Source: a virus
Lineage: Duplodnaviria; Caudoviricetes
Reading direction: 5' to 3' (one strand)
DNA: 64,000 bases
Virus record (IMG/VR): IMGVR_UViG_3300013947_000026
Span: 38,883-102,882 of that record
The notes under the pieces were generated by a model. That model was not told the origin of the DNA, made no database searches, and was given only the letters and a program-made list of their open reading frames with translations. Below, one piece after another: positions 19,064 to 48,620 of the stretch. The position numbers and the translations under genes are program-made. Position 1 is the stretch's first letter. Every line of letters starts with the position of its first letter.

Positions 19064-19668
19064 AACTTATAAGTTAGAGTGAGAGGAAGGAGTCGGACCT
19101 TCGTATACATATAATGTATAAAACTGCCAAGTGTTACTTTCAGACTTCTCTCACATATAAAAGAGCAGTTTAATGACATGCTCAGGTCAAACGGGCAGAC
19201 AGTTTACGGGCTTGTCTAGGCCGGGGACTTCATTTATACATCCCAGATCCAACTTAAGTATGGTTCACCATGAAATCTGATTGCTCTAAGTGAATAGAGC
19301 GTGTTACTAAGTGAGACCTATCCTCACGGACCGGAGTTTTCTACATATAAATGATAAACAAAAACAGTGGCTATGCTAGGAATCGAACCTAGCAGAATGG
19401 GAAAAATGTACGAAAATAACAAAAGATAAAAACCATTCTTGTCTTATGCCTCACGACACCCTGACTAGCCTTGTTGGAGGCATTTCACCTCCAAAGGGTA
19501 ACTGAATTACCTAGCTCCACCAACGTCAGTTTATGGCGGTATTACCCTCCCTGACGTAACCACTTGTCATACAGTTTGACACTCCTGCTATGTAAATGAT
19601 ATAAAAACCATTTACCGGATTTCATACAATCAAGTAGTATTTCTTTCTCTTTAGATGTATATTCTCCC

Positions 19669-20360: not shown

Positions 20361-21101
20361 TTACTTAAATATTTTATCCCAATGTGTTGTAATCGTTCCA
20401 TCTTCGTTGCCTTCTGCAATAATTATATCTTTTCCTGCTATATGTCTAGCACGAGCTTCCATAATTGTGTCAGACGTTCCACCTTTAAAAGATATATGTG
20501 TTTCATTACCTTTACGATATACATATCCTACCGCATCGGCTAAACCACATACAATTTTACTTAGTTTTCCAACTAAATCTAGTTCTTTTGCAGATATTTC
20601 AACACCATCCTTTTCAGTTATGGTATCTTTAACGTGACCAACAAGAATAAATTCGTCACACAAATCTCGGAACATATCAATTACCTTCTTTACTGCATCT
20701 CTTAGATATTTGTACCCCGCTCCATTTGGCAGCGTTGTAACATCTGTACCCTCCCATTTCTTGCCCATTGGAGTTTGACGATAGAGTGTACAAGCATAGC
20801 TCATACAGATATCTTCGAGTCGTGTAGCATTATCAATAGTGATATGTCTATAGAAATTATGACCTACTTCTTTATTCTTGGCACGAATGGCACTTGCAGC
20901 TTCTCCTAAATCGTTGATTGTACGACACTGGATGGCCATAGCATCAACGAAGACAGAGCCTCCTTCAAGGTCTATGATAAGATTATTATCCAGCTGGGCA
21001 AGACAAGATGTTTTTCCAGCTTTTGGAAGACCATACAAAATTAGATATCTAGGATTTTCAGAAACTGCAGGAATTTTACTTGTAGGTAATGTTAAACTCA
21101 T
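20361..21101 (-). CDS. Sak4/AAA_24-like NTPase (recombination)
   Basis: LYGLPKAGKT, IIDLEGG, ITIDNAT, GAGY, ILVGH. Confidence 0.8.
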   Translation of the reverse strand: MSLTLPTSKIPAVSENPRYLILYGLPKAGKTSCLAQLDNNLIIDLEGGSVFVDAMAIQCRTINDLGEAASAIRAKNKEVGHNFYRHITIDNATRLEDICMSYACTLYRQTPMGKKWEGTDVTTLPNGAGYKYLRDAVKKVIDMFRDLCDEFILVGHVKDTITEKDGVEISAKELDLVGKLSKIVCGLADAVGYVYRKGNETHISFKGGTSDTIMEARARHIAGKDIIIAEGNEDGTITTHWDKIFK

Positions 21102-21129
21102 GATACTATGATACTTAAGTTATTTTAAA

Positions 21130-28914: not shown

Positions 28915-31030
28915 TTTTGATATCGTTATTGATTAACTAACGATATGATTTTTAAACTATGGTATATTCTTTGGCTATACCTTTGCCGTTGTTTATTGAA
29001 TAAAGCAACGCTGATACGAAGATACTCGATGCTATTTTGTTTTCATAAAGACAGTTTTACTATTGTAAACGCTTTAATAGAGACTTAGTTACACTCTTCT
29101 TATCTCAACAATAGGGAGGTAAGCTTGTAACAGGAATTGTATACGTATGATACAATTAACATTTACTGGATTCATCCAGGCCCATCGTCAAAAGCTTTGA
29201 ATGCTGTCTTGACATAATCAAATGTCATATCTATGTTTATTTTGCAGTTTTTCTGCTTATAGATTTTTCTAACTATAATGTCTCTAACTTCGTTGGCAAA
29301 ATTTCCTTTCGGACTAATGTTCGTAGAAATTAGAGATTACATCCAACAAAAAGAGATGTAGTATTTCGGTCATATTTCCCCTTATATACCATACCGAATT
29401 ATTAAACTACATGGTTGTTATTGAAGCGGATATCCTCCACTGCTAACATAGAAGCGTCTGTCAGCTAAGATTCCTCTCTGCGATACTAGCTATTGGCATA
29501 TATCCAGTGGTTGGTTATCGGAATGTCTCAGGATCAAACCCTTCACAGACTTTACGGCTTTTTATATCTTTGCTGATATTTGTAATTTTTCTATACCGGT
29601 ATTACTACCTCCTATTTATAGTGCACGAATATTGGGAATTCAACCCATACATTCCATCTTGTCACCCACTTATAACGTGATATACATATATAGAGACAGT
29701 ATATATGTATAACATGCACCAGTTGTTTTACAACGTTGATATAAGCTGCCCATCAATTTCTTGTATTGCTTTGAACCTTTGTGTTTACATATATTGTTGC
29801 GCAATATACTTTAGCATGGTTTAGCACATCGGTTGGCACTCGATTTCTCCACCTCAAGCTCGTAACTACAATATACGATTTTCTCTATGGAGTGACATCA
29901 ATTTTTATTATACATGTTATTTTTGAATACCATTAAATTTTCATAATTTATATCTAAATATGTATATTAAACTCATACATAATATACCAGCTTACTACTC
30001 TGTAGAGACTATGTAATATTGCATAATAAGACATAAATAAATTATTAGTTTAATTTCTTTCTGGATTAAGTGGAGGTCAAATGGTCTTGGCTAGACATAT
30101 CTCGAATCAACTTAAACCTTATATTTTTGCCATTTCTTGTTTTAGGATAGCTCTCCATCAATTTTCTTTGGTTATAACGGAACCATCGATCATAGCCTCA
30201 TAAGTTATTTAGTTCTTATGGGAAATATATATTTCGTAATCGCTTACCATTATTACTATATATATTGAAATAGACTTTCACCGCGGTCTTCATCCGCGTA
30301 CGATACTTATAATAAAGCTTCGATTAAGGGGTTGCCCTACCCTTGTGCTCATTTTACTTTTATATACCGCTTGAACGAGCAAAGCCTGGCGGTCAACAAT
30401 CAGGCACTTCTACCCCATCCCTGGCACCCCTTCAACGGAGTTGCACTGAATCGAACAGTAAGGTTTTGGTATAGCCAGCAAACTCATTTAGTTTACTCTG
30501 TGTGGTATTATCCCCACAGTATTGATGTTGTTTCTTCGGCCTTTATATTATCCTTGGACAGATAAAAACACTACCTACAGCTTATTGATACTACTATTTG
30601 CTTTGGAGTCCTCGGTTCTTCCAGCACCATGCACCATACCATGTATGCAATTCTGTTCACCTACTGGGGACACAAATAGTTTTTTTCTCGTGTAACGTTC
30701 GTACATATTTAGTATCATCATATGTAATTCCGATACGGTTCATTATGCTCTTCTTGAGACTTATGCGTTTTTAGATTACACAACCTCATCCTGCTTATCT
30801 CCAATACGGTTCTCATAAGTCCAGTTGTGTAATCTTAGGAGTTGATACAACGCTTCTCCTACTTGTATCTTAACGTTTCAATGTTTGATACATTTCATCC
30901 TACCTTTTGAGTAATCTCGCTCTGCAAGACAGAGTTAACATATTCTCGGATCAAGTTATTTAATTTGCACATAGGCTAATGGGACCTATTATAAGTGCTT
31001 ACCTAAGTTAAGTATATAGGGTTCTTGTGT
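28915..31030 (-). ncRNA. About 2.1-kb ORF-poor region; candidate large structured RNA or ncRNA cluster
   Basis: No credible ORF; several helices, including a 12-bp stem 30773-30784/30824-30835 with a crossing 8-bp pairing. Strand inferred from flanking genes. Confidence 0.5.
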
Positions 31031-33746: not shown

Positions 33747-34304
33747 TTAAACATTTAAATTGTTTTTAATTTTCCTACGTGTGCGACTTAACGCAGCTTT
33801 TATAGTGCCTGTAGGAATTTTCAGCACTTTGCTAATTTCATCAACTGTAAGATCTTCTACATAAAACAAATTAAAAATTTTCTGTGTCTTCTCTGGTAGT
33901 TTTTTAAACTCTTTAAGAAGAGATTCGTACTCAAGAAGATTGACAAGATCTTCTTCTTCCGAAGAATTAGTTAATTCAACTGGTAGTCGGCCAGTATCTT
34001 CTCCCAATTCCATTGATTTTTCTTTTATTTTACGTAAATAATCTATAGCTGTTCTATTAGCTATAATTCTCAGCCATCCGCCAAAAGACGAATAATCTGT
34101 GAATGTCGAGAGTTTCTGATGAACTTTTAGAAATACCACATTGGTAAGGTCTTTAGCTTCATCCATGTCATTCACGTAACTAAAGAGTACGTTGTCAACG
34201 AACTCTTTGTAACGGTTAAACAGTTTATTAAACGCAAGTTCATTTCCCTTTTGCGCCTCTTTTATGGTCTCAATTTCAGATTGAGTGATACGTTGATACT
34301 CCAT
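33747..34304 (-). CDS. ECF-type sigma-70 factor
   Basis: AFNKLFNRY, AKDLTNVVFLK, FGGWLRIIANRTAIDYLRK (region 2); LTVDEISKVLKIPTGTIKAALSR (region 4). Confidence 0.92.
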   Translation of the reverse strand: MEYQRITQSEIETIKEAQKGNELAFNKLFNRYKEFVDNVLFSYVNDMDEAKDLTNVVFLKVHQKLSTFTDYSSFGGWLRIIANRTAIDYLRKIKEKSMELGEDTGRLPVELTNSSEEEDLVNLLEYESLLKEFKKLPEKTQKIFNLFYVEDLTVDEISKVLKIPTGTIKAALSRTRRKIKNNLNV

Positions 34305-34762: not shown

Positions 34763-35260
34763 TTATTTGTTATTGAACGTTCTTTCGATGTATTTTATGA
34801 ATCCATCCAAATATTCGTCGACGTCTGCATTTCTGCGAATATAATTTTTGCAATTATCATCAAAGACGCCAGAGATTGAATAAATACACTCTATGTATTT
34901 ATAATGCTTTTGAAACCATATAACCCATGTTTGTACCCATTTCCAGAAGTTTAATTCTCCTTTTTCTAGGTTAGGATTAATACTTTCCATATTTATAGAA
35001 TTAGCAAAATTAAATTCTTGCTTTCCTTTATGTATACCAAGAGCTTTTCTTACAGACGAATTCTTTTCATCTTTTGTAGTATATATAGCTACATTCTCTT
35101 TATATACTCTTTCTATCCACCTCTCTTTAACTCTGTACTTTATTCTATTTTCTGGTTCACATTGTAAATTTACAATACGTCCAAATTCTGTACACCATTT
35201 AAGAGCGATGTTGACGACATAAGGACACCTGTCCCGGATCATCGCTTTATATCCCTTCAT
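34763..35260 (-). CDS. Hypothetical protein
   Basis: 165-aa ORF. Confidence 0.65.
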   Translation of the reverse strand: MKGYKAMIRDRCPYVVNIALKWCTEFGRIVNLQCEPENRIKYRVKERWIERVYKENVAIYTTKDEKNSSVRKALGIHKGKQEFNFANSINMESINPNLEKGELNFWKWVQTWVIWFQKHYKYIECIYSISGVFDDNCKNYIRRNADVDEYLDGFIKYIERTFNNK

Positions 35261-35339
35261 AATTAAATTGGAGAAGTGTAGAGACTCGAACTCTACTACC
35301 CCAAACCATAAGGCGACGGGCCCTTTCTTCTCTCTCCAC

Positions 35340-35545
35340 TTTGGTAGGAAACACCTAGACTTTACTTACGCTACGTGAGTATAATCTACAATGTTGTTAA
35401 CATTGCCTTTTATATTTAGTATAGTGTTTATATGTATTTATCTCCTCCGCCTGTCAAAACCAAAACACGCCCTATTTAATATTTTGTGGACGTGAGCGGA
35501 ATTGAACCGCTGTCCAAGCAGATTATTTCATACACACTTTACTTT
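35340..35545 (-). ncRNA. ssrA: Circularly permuted (two-piece) tmRNA-like gene
   Basis: Acceptor piece ...GGAC-AGCGG-UUCAAUU-CCGCU-CACGUCC-A (ends 35487) precedes coding piece GGGCGUG-UUUUGGUUUUGAC... (starts 35472). G3.U70 pair; tag ORF 35407-35366 GNVNNIVDYTHVA*. Outer boundaries approximate. Confidence 0.8.
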
Positions 35546-36013
35546 CTTTGTAAATGCTCTAATGATCAGTCAGAACATTCGATTTAAACCACTTTATTTG
35601 CGTTCTAAGGCACTTTTAAATAGCTTGTGGTTAATTACTCCATTTACTTTTTATGATGTCTTAGAACGCATTAAATCATGGTTTTAAAATACACAGTGAC
35701 CCTCATGATACTATGATACTTAGAGGACTGCGTTCAGCATTTTTGATATTACATGCAGGGTTCACAATATTGAAGTTATCTTAAAGTAATTCTCCCCGAT
35801 ACGAAGATACGCACATGTCATATTTTTTGATCTACTGCCCCTAATTATACGTGTAGGGTCACGTCATTCTTTCCCTATCATGATACTAAGATACTTAGAT
35901 AGGAATGTCAATTCATTCTTTTACTCTTTAAGTGTCCTTGCCACTCACTAGTGCATCGCTGTAATCTCTTGGAGCTTGGGCGTGATACGATGATACTTGC
36001 CCTGGAAAGAATA

Positions 36014-38132: not shown

Positions 38133-40990
38133 TTACTTTTCAATTATATCAACCCATATTGCTAATAAAAACAATAAGCTTATAATTAACAATATTACTA
38201 GCCACATTGCTATTAAGCCTAGTGCTAAGTTACTTATATTTGTACCACGTTGAATTATTTCAAATAATGGCTCTGATGTAAGTACAATACATAGCATACT
38301 TACAAATATACTTACTGCTTTATTCATGGTCAAATAATTGTTGAGTTTTACTAAAATCTTTTTCATGCACAAAATAGCTTTCTGATCCTTCGATTATATA
38401 CTCTTTTGTAGCACCAATCTCATACTCGTTGTTTGATAATATGCAAACATCGTCATCTGTAGCATCTTTATAAGATAACAATATTATATTATTATCTTCA
38501 CAAACTTTTTTGAGCTTTCTAACATCTTTGTGATAACGTCTTGTTTCAAGCTCTTCGTCGGACATTTGCCCATTTTTTCTACGTTTTGCCATATTAAGGA
38601 CGAATAAAAATTATACCATCTTCGGAGCATGTCAGTTGTTCTTTGAAATTTTTTAAATCTTGTACTCTTGGACAAGAAAAAGGATTATCAAATATACAAC
38701 CTTTACAACTACCGAATTGACGTTTAGCCCTAACTATGACTCCTTTTATGTTGTAGATTCTGCCAGGACTAAGTTTTTTGTTCATAATATTCTATCTGCA
38801 AGTATTAATTTAATCATTGGTGTAACGACTCTTATTTTTTGGTAAGAGTCGTTACTTTCGTATCCAATAGTCTTTATTACTTTTTCAGCTTTAGATAGTT
38901 TAAATATTATCTTTGCTCTTGTTGTTGGATGAATAAACGCAACAAACATTGGTGTATTTTCATATATTTTCTCAAACATTTTTGATAATTTATGATAAAA
39001 CACACCTCCATTCATTTCTCTTTTTATAAGAGTATTAAATTCATCTTCTTTTATAGTAACTTGGATTATTGGCTCCTTTTTAATACTTTTTGCTATTTCT
39101 TGTTTCATTATTACACATTGTAAGTATTTTTTGTTATAGCCAACAATCATTCCTTTAGCTGCAGCTATTATTACAAACGCATCTGCTAATATAACTTTTT
39201 CCATTTTTGATGTAACATATCCTGTTATAGTTATATTGTTTTCTGTGTTGTAAATAATATCTTTTTCAGCATCCCTTAATTGTATTACATCAAATTTTAC
39301 AAGTTTACTCATTTTGGTACGAATTTAATTTTATAACGTACTATTGATGATATAGTTCCATTTTTTAGTTTTATTCCTAAATATGGCTTGATAGAGTATT
39401 GCTTGCATATATTGATATAATCAACTACATTCTTAGAAATTGGTATAATCTCTGAAAATTTTGTTTTTTCATCACTATATACAGCGTAAAACTTAGTAGA
39501 TTTACCATTCGTTGATGATTTCTCAACAATTTTCTTGATGCATTCTACTTTACATAACATAGTGTCAACTTTTGTTGGGTTTACCGCTTGACACTTAGCA
39601 GTAACAAATAGCATTAGCACTATTATAACTAACGCTATCACCCAGCCAGATCCATGATTGTCTGGCTCTTCATACAATTTAATAGACATTTTATACTTTA
39701 ATGTATGATAACAAATTTAACACTTGTCTTACCTGCCCCCGGAATATCCTTATGCTTATTGTTAATAAAGCTGTTAAGTTTGTTATATAGGGATACGGCA
39801 TTGACTTTACTTAACCCTGAAGAGAGGATCATTGTAGATCCTCCCTCTTTAGCTATAACCTTGTAGTTTACATATTCAGCATCAGTTCTACCTTTTGCTG
39901 ATTGTGGTTGAACGACTTGGTTATGCGTTATCACAACTTTTTTCTTCTTCATCGAACCAAGGCTTACAATCCGCACCAATGTTTTTGATTACTTCAGGCT
40001 CACTGAGTCTTTCTTCAGCGATAGCAGCAATAGCTTTTGCCATTTCTGCTAAAGAATTAACGTCGTCTACACTGTTGTACTTACCATTGATTTGCATTGC
40101 GACATATATTTGCTGTTCACTTGTTTTGTCGTCATGCAGTACACCGATTCCTTTAAGTGCTGGAATTTGCTTTTTCCATTTAGTCTCAATGTACGAAGGG
40201 TAGTCTAAATCAACATGATTTGGTGAAAGAATAACACGAACTGCTACACTTGTTTCGTTTTCTGTTGCATGAACTTCCGTTCTTACTTTTGGGTACGTAT
40301 TCCCAATTTTGCTTAATAAAATACTACTCATAATTTTGATAATTAATGAATTTATTTACTTGTATAAGACTTACCACTTATACTTGGTGTTCCATCTGTA
40401 TTTATAGAGGCTTTGGACTCTCAGCTAATGCTGGCTACATTAAACACTTAGGGTTGATGCAACTCAACCCTTATGTTTCATTTTATTTGTTTAAAATATC
40501 CATTCTCATGACACCTTTTACATGTTATATACGATTCTGCCCAAAATTCATTATTGTCATGAGCAGCAATAACACATTTTTCACATGCAACAAAATTTCC
40601 TTTGTATTTTACACATTGATAAACATGGTTATCCAATGTCATTAACTGGCCTAATTTCAATCTATGAATACCAGATGTCGTTGATGATTTCATATTTCAT
40701 AACTATTTATTATTTAAAGAATCAACAATAGATTTTGCTTTAAGATAATCAGTACCATAATCTGTTTCTAAGTCAGTATCCATTAAATCTAGATTATGTG
40801 TGCCATCAAGAGAGTCAAGCAATGTTTCTGTACTTCTATAGTACTCTTCATATGCTTCGATCTTAGCTTGTGCTTTACTACTTGTCTTTTTATAATGATT
40901 AACAGCGAAGCATAAACTAACACAAGAACCAATTACAGCTCCTATTATAAATAGATTAAGCTGATCCATAATTTTATTAATTTTGTTCAT
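38133..40990 (-). CDS. Cluster of small early hypothetical ORFs (38133-38372, 38320-38592, 38594-38785, 38782-39312, 39309-39689, 39921-40331, 40478-40693, 40703-40990)
   Basis: Tightly packed same-strand ORFs; several with TM segments, two Cys-rich. Confidence 0.6.
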
Positions 40991-41597
40991 AATTATATAA
41001 TTATTGATTAATATACAAATAAAATACGCCTATTCTCACGAACCAGCGTATTGTGAACATCAGGTTATTAGCAAACAACTTATAACTAATGACACCCTAA
41101 GACATAAAGAAAAATACATTTGGTGGTTATTTGGACTCGAACCGTCATAGATTATAATTCTATCAAGTGCCTCGTTCACTTTACGTGCACATAGTCTACC
41201 CTCTTATCTTAATATAAGTGTAGAATAACCACATGCTGTCTATCCAGCTGTCATAGAGAATTGAAACCATTTAATACACCTCTTGCAAGTAGGCTGTCTA
41301 CCTCAATTCTCTACATTACTAGTAATATTGTTCACTCTGCATTCAGATAACTGACATTCTAATAGCTTTGCAACCACTATTAGCGCGTTCATCATCTGCG
41401 GGCTTGTGACCGCCACTCGGCTGCATTACAAGTATATCTATTCTCACGAACCAATATACTTTATTACTAAAAATCACGGTTGGTATCAGACTACCCTCTG
41501 ATGCAACAAAGAGTAGTTTCGTCCAGTCTCATCAGTGATAATCGGAGTATTACGCAGTAATACGTAGTGCTCACATTTTATAGACTCCTGGCTGTCT

Positions 41598-48389: not shown

Positions 48390-48465
48390 GAGTCTATTAG
48401 TCAAACGGTAAAGACAACCCGATATAAAGGGAATAGTTAGTGGGTTCGACTCCCACATAGACTCC
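48390..48465 (+). ncRNA. tRNA-like RNA with an aberrant anticodon arm
   Basis: 8-bp acceptor GAGTCTAT/ATAGACTC, D arm, and T arm GTGGG TTCGACT CCCAC; anticodon arm does not fit a 5-bp stem with 7-nt loop. Confidence 0.55.
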
Positions 48466-48547: not shown

Positions 48548-48620
48548 TGCCCTATGGTGTACCGCCTGTGCACAACTGTCTCTAAAACAGTAGGTCTCCG
48601 ATGGACACGGAGTGGGGCTA
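48548..48620 (+). tRNA. Amber suppressor tRNA(CUA), probably Gln-charged, with atypical D/T loops
   Basis: TGCCCTA-TG-GTGT ACCGCCTGT GCAC-A-ACTGT CT CTA AA ACAGT-AGGT-CTCCG ATGGACA CGGAG-TGGGGCT-A. Confidence 0.85.

Follow-up and report, generated by a model that had tools for sequence, protein, structure and literature searches.

A probable two-piece tmRNA gene with its own tag frame in TAG-recoded crAss-like phages

The stretch of DNA analysed here (the window) comprises 64,000 nucleotides (positions 38,883 to 102,882) of the IMG/VR record IMGVR_UViG_3300013947_000026, a genome of 102,882 bp that is rated complete. The phage is a TAG-recoded crAss-like phage of the Suoliviridae, subfamily Oafivirinae; the crAss-like group ranks among the most abundant viruses in the human gut. 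The long open reading frames (ORFs) of the + strand need read-through of TAG, with between 3 and 52 in-frame TAGs in each late gene. The tmRNA locus lies on the - strand in an early/middle block that is free of in-frame TAGs and uses the standard code. The features of the locus and its immediate surroundings are as follows (evidence in parentheses).

35706..35721, - strand: promoter-like repeat AAGTATC-N3-GTATCA, just upstream of the conserved RNA (motif count, conservation)
35881-35896, 35983-35998, 34286-34301, 29012-29027 and 21101-21116, - strand: further copies of this repeat
35600..35669, - strand: stem-loop I of the 5' extension, a long stem around a small GUGG/CCAC hairpin (RNAalifold, 31 unique sequences)
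35552..35580, - strand: stem-loop II of the 5' extension, an 11-bp hairpin (RNAalifold)
35487..35538, - strand: core of the acceptor piece, with the 5' strands of P2c and P2b, an internal loop, the P2a 5' strand, GAC, the T arm, the acceptor 3' strand and A35487 (Rfam alignment, covariation)
35522-35515, - strand: P2a 5' strand (sequence check)
35511-35495, - strand: T arm (sequence check)
35494-35488, - strand: acceptor 3' strand (sequence check)
35487, - strand: discriminator A (sequence check)
35486-35473, - strand: spacer of 14 nt, predicted to be removed on maturation, CCA not encoded
35423..35472, - strand: 5' part of the coding piece, with the acceptor 5' strand, the D-loop analogue and the 3' strands of P2a, P2b and P2c (Rfam alignment, covariation)
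from G35472 (G1), - strand: acceptor 5' strand, forming a 7-bp stem with G3.U70
35453-35446, - strand: P2a 3' strand (sequence check)
35366..35407, - strand: tag reading frame GGC...GCG TAA, 13 codons plus stop (GGC 35407-35405, TAA 35368-35366)
35343..35355, - strand: post-ORF hairpin with a stem of 3-5 bp and a 7-nt loop (covariation)
35271..35332, - strand: tRNA-like element with an acceptor stem and a T arm, no D arm and a variable middle (folds)
34763-35260, - strand: first gene downstream of the tmRNA locus, encoding a conserved protein of 165 aa
33747-34304: ECF-type sigma factor gene

The 165-aa protein has a high content of Trp and Cys and a predicted structure that is helical throughout (pLDDT 85); it matches no Pfam or PHROG family, and its fold has no counterpart in the PDB. 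As a candidate SmpB it was rejected, being all-helical and without a PDB fold match. The other neighbouring genes, the ECF sigma factor excepted, have no Pfam or PHROG family, and a search of the phage for SmpB gives no PF01668 match.

The locus matches the Rfam model RF04321 (tmRNA_permuted) at 35366-35534 (-) over the full model (positions 1-213), with 74.3 bits and an E-value of 2e-12 against a gathering score of 47 bits. ARAGORN calls a permuted tmRNA (tmRNA*) at 35205-35576, and the standard tmRNA model RF00023 scores the phage locus at 18.9 bits only. Across the whole 102,882-bp genome, this is the sole tmRNA-like match of Rfam and ARAGORN. The putative precursor of 415 nt has a fold z of -4.4 relative to shuffled sequences, with the same helices recovered; match quality and fold lie far beyond chance expectation. 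The gene runs from the 3' half through the spacer to the 5' half and tag frame, which is the order of the permuted form, and includes a T arm with a tRNA-type T-loop, a D-loop analogue and a P2 that replaces the anticodon arm. The claim of a first-pass annotation that the phage encodes a circularly permuted tmRNA is borne out by the RF04321 score, the tmRNA* call and the covariation described below, and every element it had listed is present on the - strand where it was placed, including the lack of an encoded CCA, a property shared with the tRNA-Lys of the phage.

Certain details of that annotation are to be revised. Of two further pairings proposed, ACACU/AGUGU is the correct distal helix and covaries, while CAUAU/GUAUG is off by one in register; UGUAU/AUACA is the better register, on which the Rfam alignment and RNAalifold agree. 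The limits of 35340-35545 are too narrow, as the real feature runs past both ends. The description of the RNA as minimal holds for a core that lacks pseudoknots but not for the locus, to which a covarying 5' extension and 3' elements belong. Pseudoknots were sought before the tag (PK1) and after it (PK2-4), and none is detected; the consensus folds are plain hairpins, and P2c lies just 15 nt from the resume codon. PK1 matters in model tmRNAs, and the RF04321 definition does not require pseudoknots. RNAalifold also draws a long-range helix that joins the purine-rich segment following P2a to the U/C-rich segment beyond the stop; it was rejected, given uncompensated variation in sequences retrieved without that constraint. 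Such variation fits a hairpin loop; a contact between this loop and the internal loop, one not marked by double-sided changes, may be possible.

The acceptor stem, T arm and P2 covary across ~60 related phage contigs, in which G3.U70, the identity pair of alanyl-tRNA synthetase (AlaRS), never changes. The count covers 24 unique helix sets, with pairing compared to that of 1000 partner shuffles, none of which (0/1000) reached the observed value. Paired cells amount to 100% in the acceptor stem (double-sided changes at 3/7 positions), 100% in the T stem (4/5), 99% in P2a (7/8) and 97.5% in P2c (3/5). G3.U70, the discriminator A and the next C are invariant in the 24 sets. The G3.U70 pair is also kept in Dulem virus 42 and in a Bohxovirus, which add compensated variants of their own: G4-C69 in the former and a wholly different P2c in the latter. 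In its T-loop, the window has an A, still a purine, where nearly all relatives have a G.

The tag frame translates as (A)GNVNNIVDYTHVA* and is kept in relatives, with the frame proposed at first reading also called by ARAGORN in those relatives where the program finds the gene. As was also proposed, the tag lacks a terminal AA and ends in VA here. Among 17 unique tag ORF sequences, the D, Y, T and final A codons show synonymous changes only, the stop is TAA in 12 and TGA in 5, and there are two length classes that differ by one whole codon. The same constraint is seen in contigs retrieved by patterns outside the tag. The conserved core is ...[IV][VI]DYT..., followed by HVA, NVA, CVA, RVA or NIA, or by GLQEAA in cr273_1. 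The first codon is polymorphic (GGC, GAC or CAG for Gly, Asp or Gln); thus, the exact resume point is assigned by analogy only. Two hairpins lie within the tag ORF, and their pairing is maintained through base changes. For the window itself, ARAGORN reports a different tag (VSYQSG...), which covers sequence of the post-ORF hairpin and of the tRNA-like element; this call is wrong, as the middle of the tRNA-like element is hypervariable or absent in relatives. ARAGORN can, therefore, mis-call the tag of such genes. Loss of the stems or of the tag frame in relatives had been named in the first-pass annotation as grounds for giving up the tmRNA; both are conserved, and the tRNA-like domain, P2 and tag frame are under selection across the phage subfamily.

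A conserved, structured 5' extension of ~130 nt precedes the core and persists in a distant relative (L109) without the downstream parts. In stem-loop I, double-sided changes replace CG by UA in 13 sequences and AU by GC in 7, and the inner hairpin has GC to AU in 4; the element is also present in L109. Stem-loop II has three pairs with double-sided changes and is re-paired fully with a different sequence in L109. On the 3' side, the post-ORF hairpin stem changes from G-C to A-U in the cr130/cr131 group, with variation located in the loop, and neither Dulem virus 42 nor L109 has the hairpin. The tRNA-like element stops 10 nt short of the start codon (ATG, 35260) of the following ORF, and its acceptor and T stems covary (AU to GC in 16 sequences). 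Its middle is absent in two relatives (L028 and L034), leaving a bare minihelix; the cr7_1 record labels it tRNA-Cys, two real tRNAs occupy the same place in cr273_1, and the Bohxovirus has a 7-bp version 5 nt before the ATG. As they are missing in the most distant relatives, the 3' minihelix and the post-ORF hairpin are not essential parts. The loop of stem-loop I was also considered as a partner of the tail that follows the minihelix, a pairing rejected as it fails in cr131_1.

The repeat AAGTATC-N3-GTATCA has 10 matches in the window versus 3.5 expected, and all six good copies lie on the - strand in the early/middle block. It is conserved upstream of the tmRNA in relatives and is a candidate phage promoter or operator. 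T-loop motifs are likewise in excess (8 matches versus 2.9 expected), including perfect copies outside called tRNA genes at 41133-41143 and 19379-19389 (-); this excess suggests that the early block may hold more tRNA-like modules.

The flanking DNA of the locus is ~73% identical to cr7_1 and cr124_1, and a tmRNA is annotated at the syntenic place in the RefSeq records of cr7_1 (NC_055895), cr124_1 (NC_055899), cr130_1 (NC_055901), cr131_1 (NC_055902) and cr273_1 (NC_055904). The gene adjoins the ECF sigma factor gene in six Oafivirinae genera. With five RefSeq relatives already annotated and phage two-piece tmRNAs published (PMC9004378), the implied novelty of the gene does not hold. A literature search found no paper that describes a crAss-like phage tmRNA, and the public records carry a pipeline label only. 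Another ~55 contigs come from three pattern scans of IMG/VR, of which two used anchors outside the tag. Unannotated copies include that of Bohxovirus sp. 'endotrachealis' (PV686213; L165 4302-4491 (-)), which scores 70.6 bits with the tag GNFNVVDYTCVA and is not called by ARAGORN, and that of Dulem virus 42, which lies beneath "hypothetical protein" calls. A pattern scan of genome contigs was too loose (95 matches, 5 real), and five metagenome-assembled genomes (MAGs) hold the gene. One of these is a Segatella copri MAG in which a near-complete genome of this phage group (L107 = G001:C203, 101,563 bp) is binned; the bin is a weak hint to the host.

The 14-nt spacer of the window is the shortest of the family, with those of relatives ranging from 16 to 180 nt. 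The spacers of relatives (L001-L042) hold mostly 1-2 copies of a ~30-nt hairpin module directly ahead of G1; its 11-nt loop is constant and its 6-bp stem covaries. The window is without this module. In three relatives (L032 7863-8143 (+), L042 1843-2134 (-) and L045 5507-5799 (-)), a group I intron (RF00028, 81-87 bits) splits the T-loop of the tmRNA, and ARAGORN misses all three genes. The T-loop of the window is uninterrupted, with group I intron absent. The phylum table of a 2025 tmRNA catalogue has no permuted-plus-intron class (PMC11915505). As the Bohxovirus and intron-bearing examples illustrate, ARAGORN can miss the gene entirely.

A different permuted tmRNA is observed on a 109-kb contig (L163 8111-8597 (-) = G028:C48) from a MAG that belongs to the order of the Segatella copri MAG. 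It scores 51.1 bits with RF04321 and has the tag GNKIESKIAA and a 204-nt spacer; the contig carries ParB-like and endolysin genes, and the tmRNA has no match in the phage collection.

With respect to the genetic code, the sequence at 48548-48620 (+), right after tRNA-Met, folds into an amber suppressor tRNA (anticodon CUA) that has a non-standard T-loop and is called by neither ARAGORN nor Rfam. All six tmRNA-bearing genera checked are TAG-recoded; as all six carry both traits, the association of tmRNA with recoding has no contrast. As separate observations, Rfam gives a weak tRNA match (38.8 bits) at 48391-48464 (+), where the anticodon loop is oversized and ARAGORN makes no call, and ARAGORN reports 'tRNA-???' genes with 2- or 4-base anticodons in the relatives L014, L028, L032 and L048, those of the last three being close to tRNA-Met/tRNA-Lys genes.

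On the host side, standard one-piece tmRNAs are found in 5/5 host-order genomes tested (128-163 bits), with the tags GENNYALAA, GNDYNYALAA and GNDYNYAIAA. The permuted model exceeds its cut-off in 2/151 genomes of the order of the Segatella MAG, both times on phage-sized contigs, and the 2025 catalogue lists 24,380 standard versus 48 permuted genes for Bacteroidota (PMC11915505). Bacteroidales MAG bins, that of Segatella copri among them, can gain a false "permuted tmRNA" via phage contigs. The 3' half of the window is identical to three host-order tmRNAs compared at 19-21/29 positions, and the acceptor stem and T arm of the Bohxovirus 3' half match one host-order tmRNA at 28/29. The acceptor/T sequence is general to bacterial tmRNA, and such identity is, therefore, not decisive for host descent. 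The phage is without SmpB and its tRNA-Lys is without CCA; thus, it must use host enzymes.

Judged from sequence and its conservation, the locus is probably a genuine, functional two-piece tmRNA gene of a TAG-recoded crAss-like phage (a probability of roughly 0.8). The best-supported reading of its function is ordinary trans-translation, in which the phage-specific tag would be added with the help of host AlaRS and SmpB. A leftward transcript would start near 35700, be cut by host RNase P 5' of G35472 and by a 3' tRNA-processing nuclease after A35487, and have its end completed by the host CCA-adding enzyme. The minihelix at 35332-35271 is a probable RNase P/Z handle that may free the coding piece from downstream mRNA. 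The two RNAs would be held together via the acceptor stem and P2a-c, charged by host AlaRS through G3.U70 and delivered to stalled ribosomes by host SmpB. Translation would pick up at GGC 35407 and terminate at UAA 35368-35366, which would extend the stalled product by Ala and 13 tag residues. The RNA would probably serve to maintain or redirect ribosome rescue during infection, with the phage tag replacing the host ...ALAA tag.

Other readings differ in what the tag, or the RNA as a whole, is for. The tmRNA may work in trans-translation with a tag that is no degradation signal and that spares, marks or re-routes its products, possibly in the setting of the TAG read-through switch with ribosomes pausing at UAG. 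The tag ends in HVA, NVA, CVA, RVA or NIA and not in LAA, its conserved part is the internal ...VDYT..., and the late genes are rich in in-frame TAGs. In recoded E. coli, tmRNA acts at poorly decoded UAG, where tagging at the unassigned codon destroys UAG-containing proteins and can block the growth of UAG-containing phages (PMC6207430); this work makes a link between the tmRNA and the TAG switch, as raised in the first-pass annotation, plausible. Yet, the tag layout is host-like (a Gly-Asn start, Asn-rich, Tyr, and a hydrophobic plus Ala C-terminus), cr273_1 has the same core with an ...EAA end and is also TAG-recoded, trans-translation truncates the protein whatever the tag, and no contrast group was found among the six genera checked. 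A tag of this type is, thus, considered rather unlikely. A broader proposal, namely a separate phage-borne origin of a two-piece form that does without pseudoknots, is cut from an operon transcript by tRNA-type punctuation (spacer and minihelix) and gives a non-LAA fate through its ...VDYT... tag during the TAG stop-to-sense takeover, is offered as speculative and somewhat doubtful.

An RNA that soaks up host SmpB/AlaRS or blocks host trans-translation, with its tag frame unused, has a precedent in the tag-less tmRNA-like RNA of mycobacteriophage DS6A, which, on expression in E. coli, inhibits the host tmRNA (as cited in PMC11915505), and would agree with the lack of a phage SmpB. It is, however, improbable for the present locus, as a decoy would not need a maintained tag frame, and the frame is kept open, with four codons that change only synonymously, an indel of one whole codon and stop swaps. 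Fragments from the 3' end of host tmRNA genes are common in phages, where they serve as integration sites (PMC9004378), and the locus could in principle be a captured ssrA fragment of this sort, or else an attachment site or a gene in decay. This origin is scarcely credible: neither half is missing, nor is the tag, and these parts covary, synteny extends across six genera, the 3' half shares just 19-21/29 positions with the host-order tmRNAs, and the T-loop intron of some relatives must be spliced for the T arm to form. A functional tmRNA engaged in ordinary trans-translation, thus, remains the preferred reading.

The gene is of a known but little-studied kind; the case is sound but does not represent a new kind. 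A crAss-like subfamily appears to keep a private ribosome-rescue RNA with its own tag, relying on host AlaRS/SmpB. Being small, free of pseudoknots and variable in its spacer, the gene is a compact natural test case for the minimal needs of a tmRNA, and its presence alongside TAG recoding suggests that the code switch and ribosome rescue may be connected.

Compared with the RefSeq Oafivirinae tmRNAs, the window copy has the same place, permuted order and tag family; it differs in having the shortest spacer (14 nt), no spacer hairpin and a wrong ARAGORN tag. Two-piece tmRNAs are described from Alphaproteobacteria, some Betaproteobacteria and Cyanobacteria (Keiler 2000; Sharkady & Williams 2004, as cited in PMC9004378), and permuted forms are published from three bacterial groups and marine phages (PMC11915505; PMC9004378), with 53 two-piece genes among 133 unique phage tmRNAs (PMC9004378). 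The bacterial two-piece tmRNAs (RF01849, RF01850 and RF01851) share with the phage gene the order of acceptor piece, spacer and coding piece, and G3.U70, the T arm, D-loop analogue, P2 and tag frame are all common. By contrast, the match to the bacterial lineage models is limited to the tRNA-like domain, and the phage is without detected pseudoknots. The thresholds of the three models are not reached; the best, beta, gives 51.2 bits versus 84 at model positions 76-169, and the others score below beta and are dropped by clan competition. The carrier also differs, being a phage of Bacteroidales, an order with one-piece tmRNAs of its own.

The marine myophages (Melnitz, pelagiphages and cyanophages; PMC9004378) resemble the crAss-like phages in being lytic phages with a complete permuted ssrA and tag and no SmpB. 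The marine phage genes, one with a glutamine riboswitch, resemble the permuted lineages of their hosts (PMC9004378), whereas the host lineage of the crAss-like phages is not permuted and the phage recodes TAG; no riboswitch was found at the crAss-like phage locus. The tmRNA gene of Bacteroidales hosts is one piece of 370-397 nt that matches RF00023 at full length, and its tag ends in LAA, unlike that of the phage. Common to both are the motifs of the tRNA-like domain and tags that resume with Gly-Asn and place Tyr four or five residues from the end.
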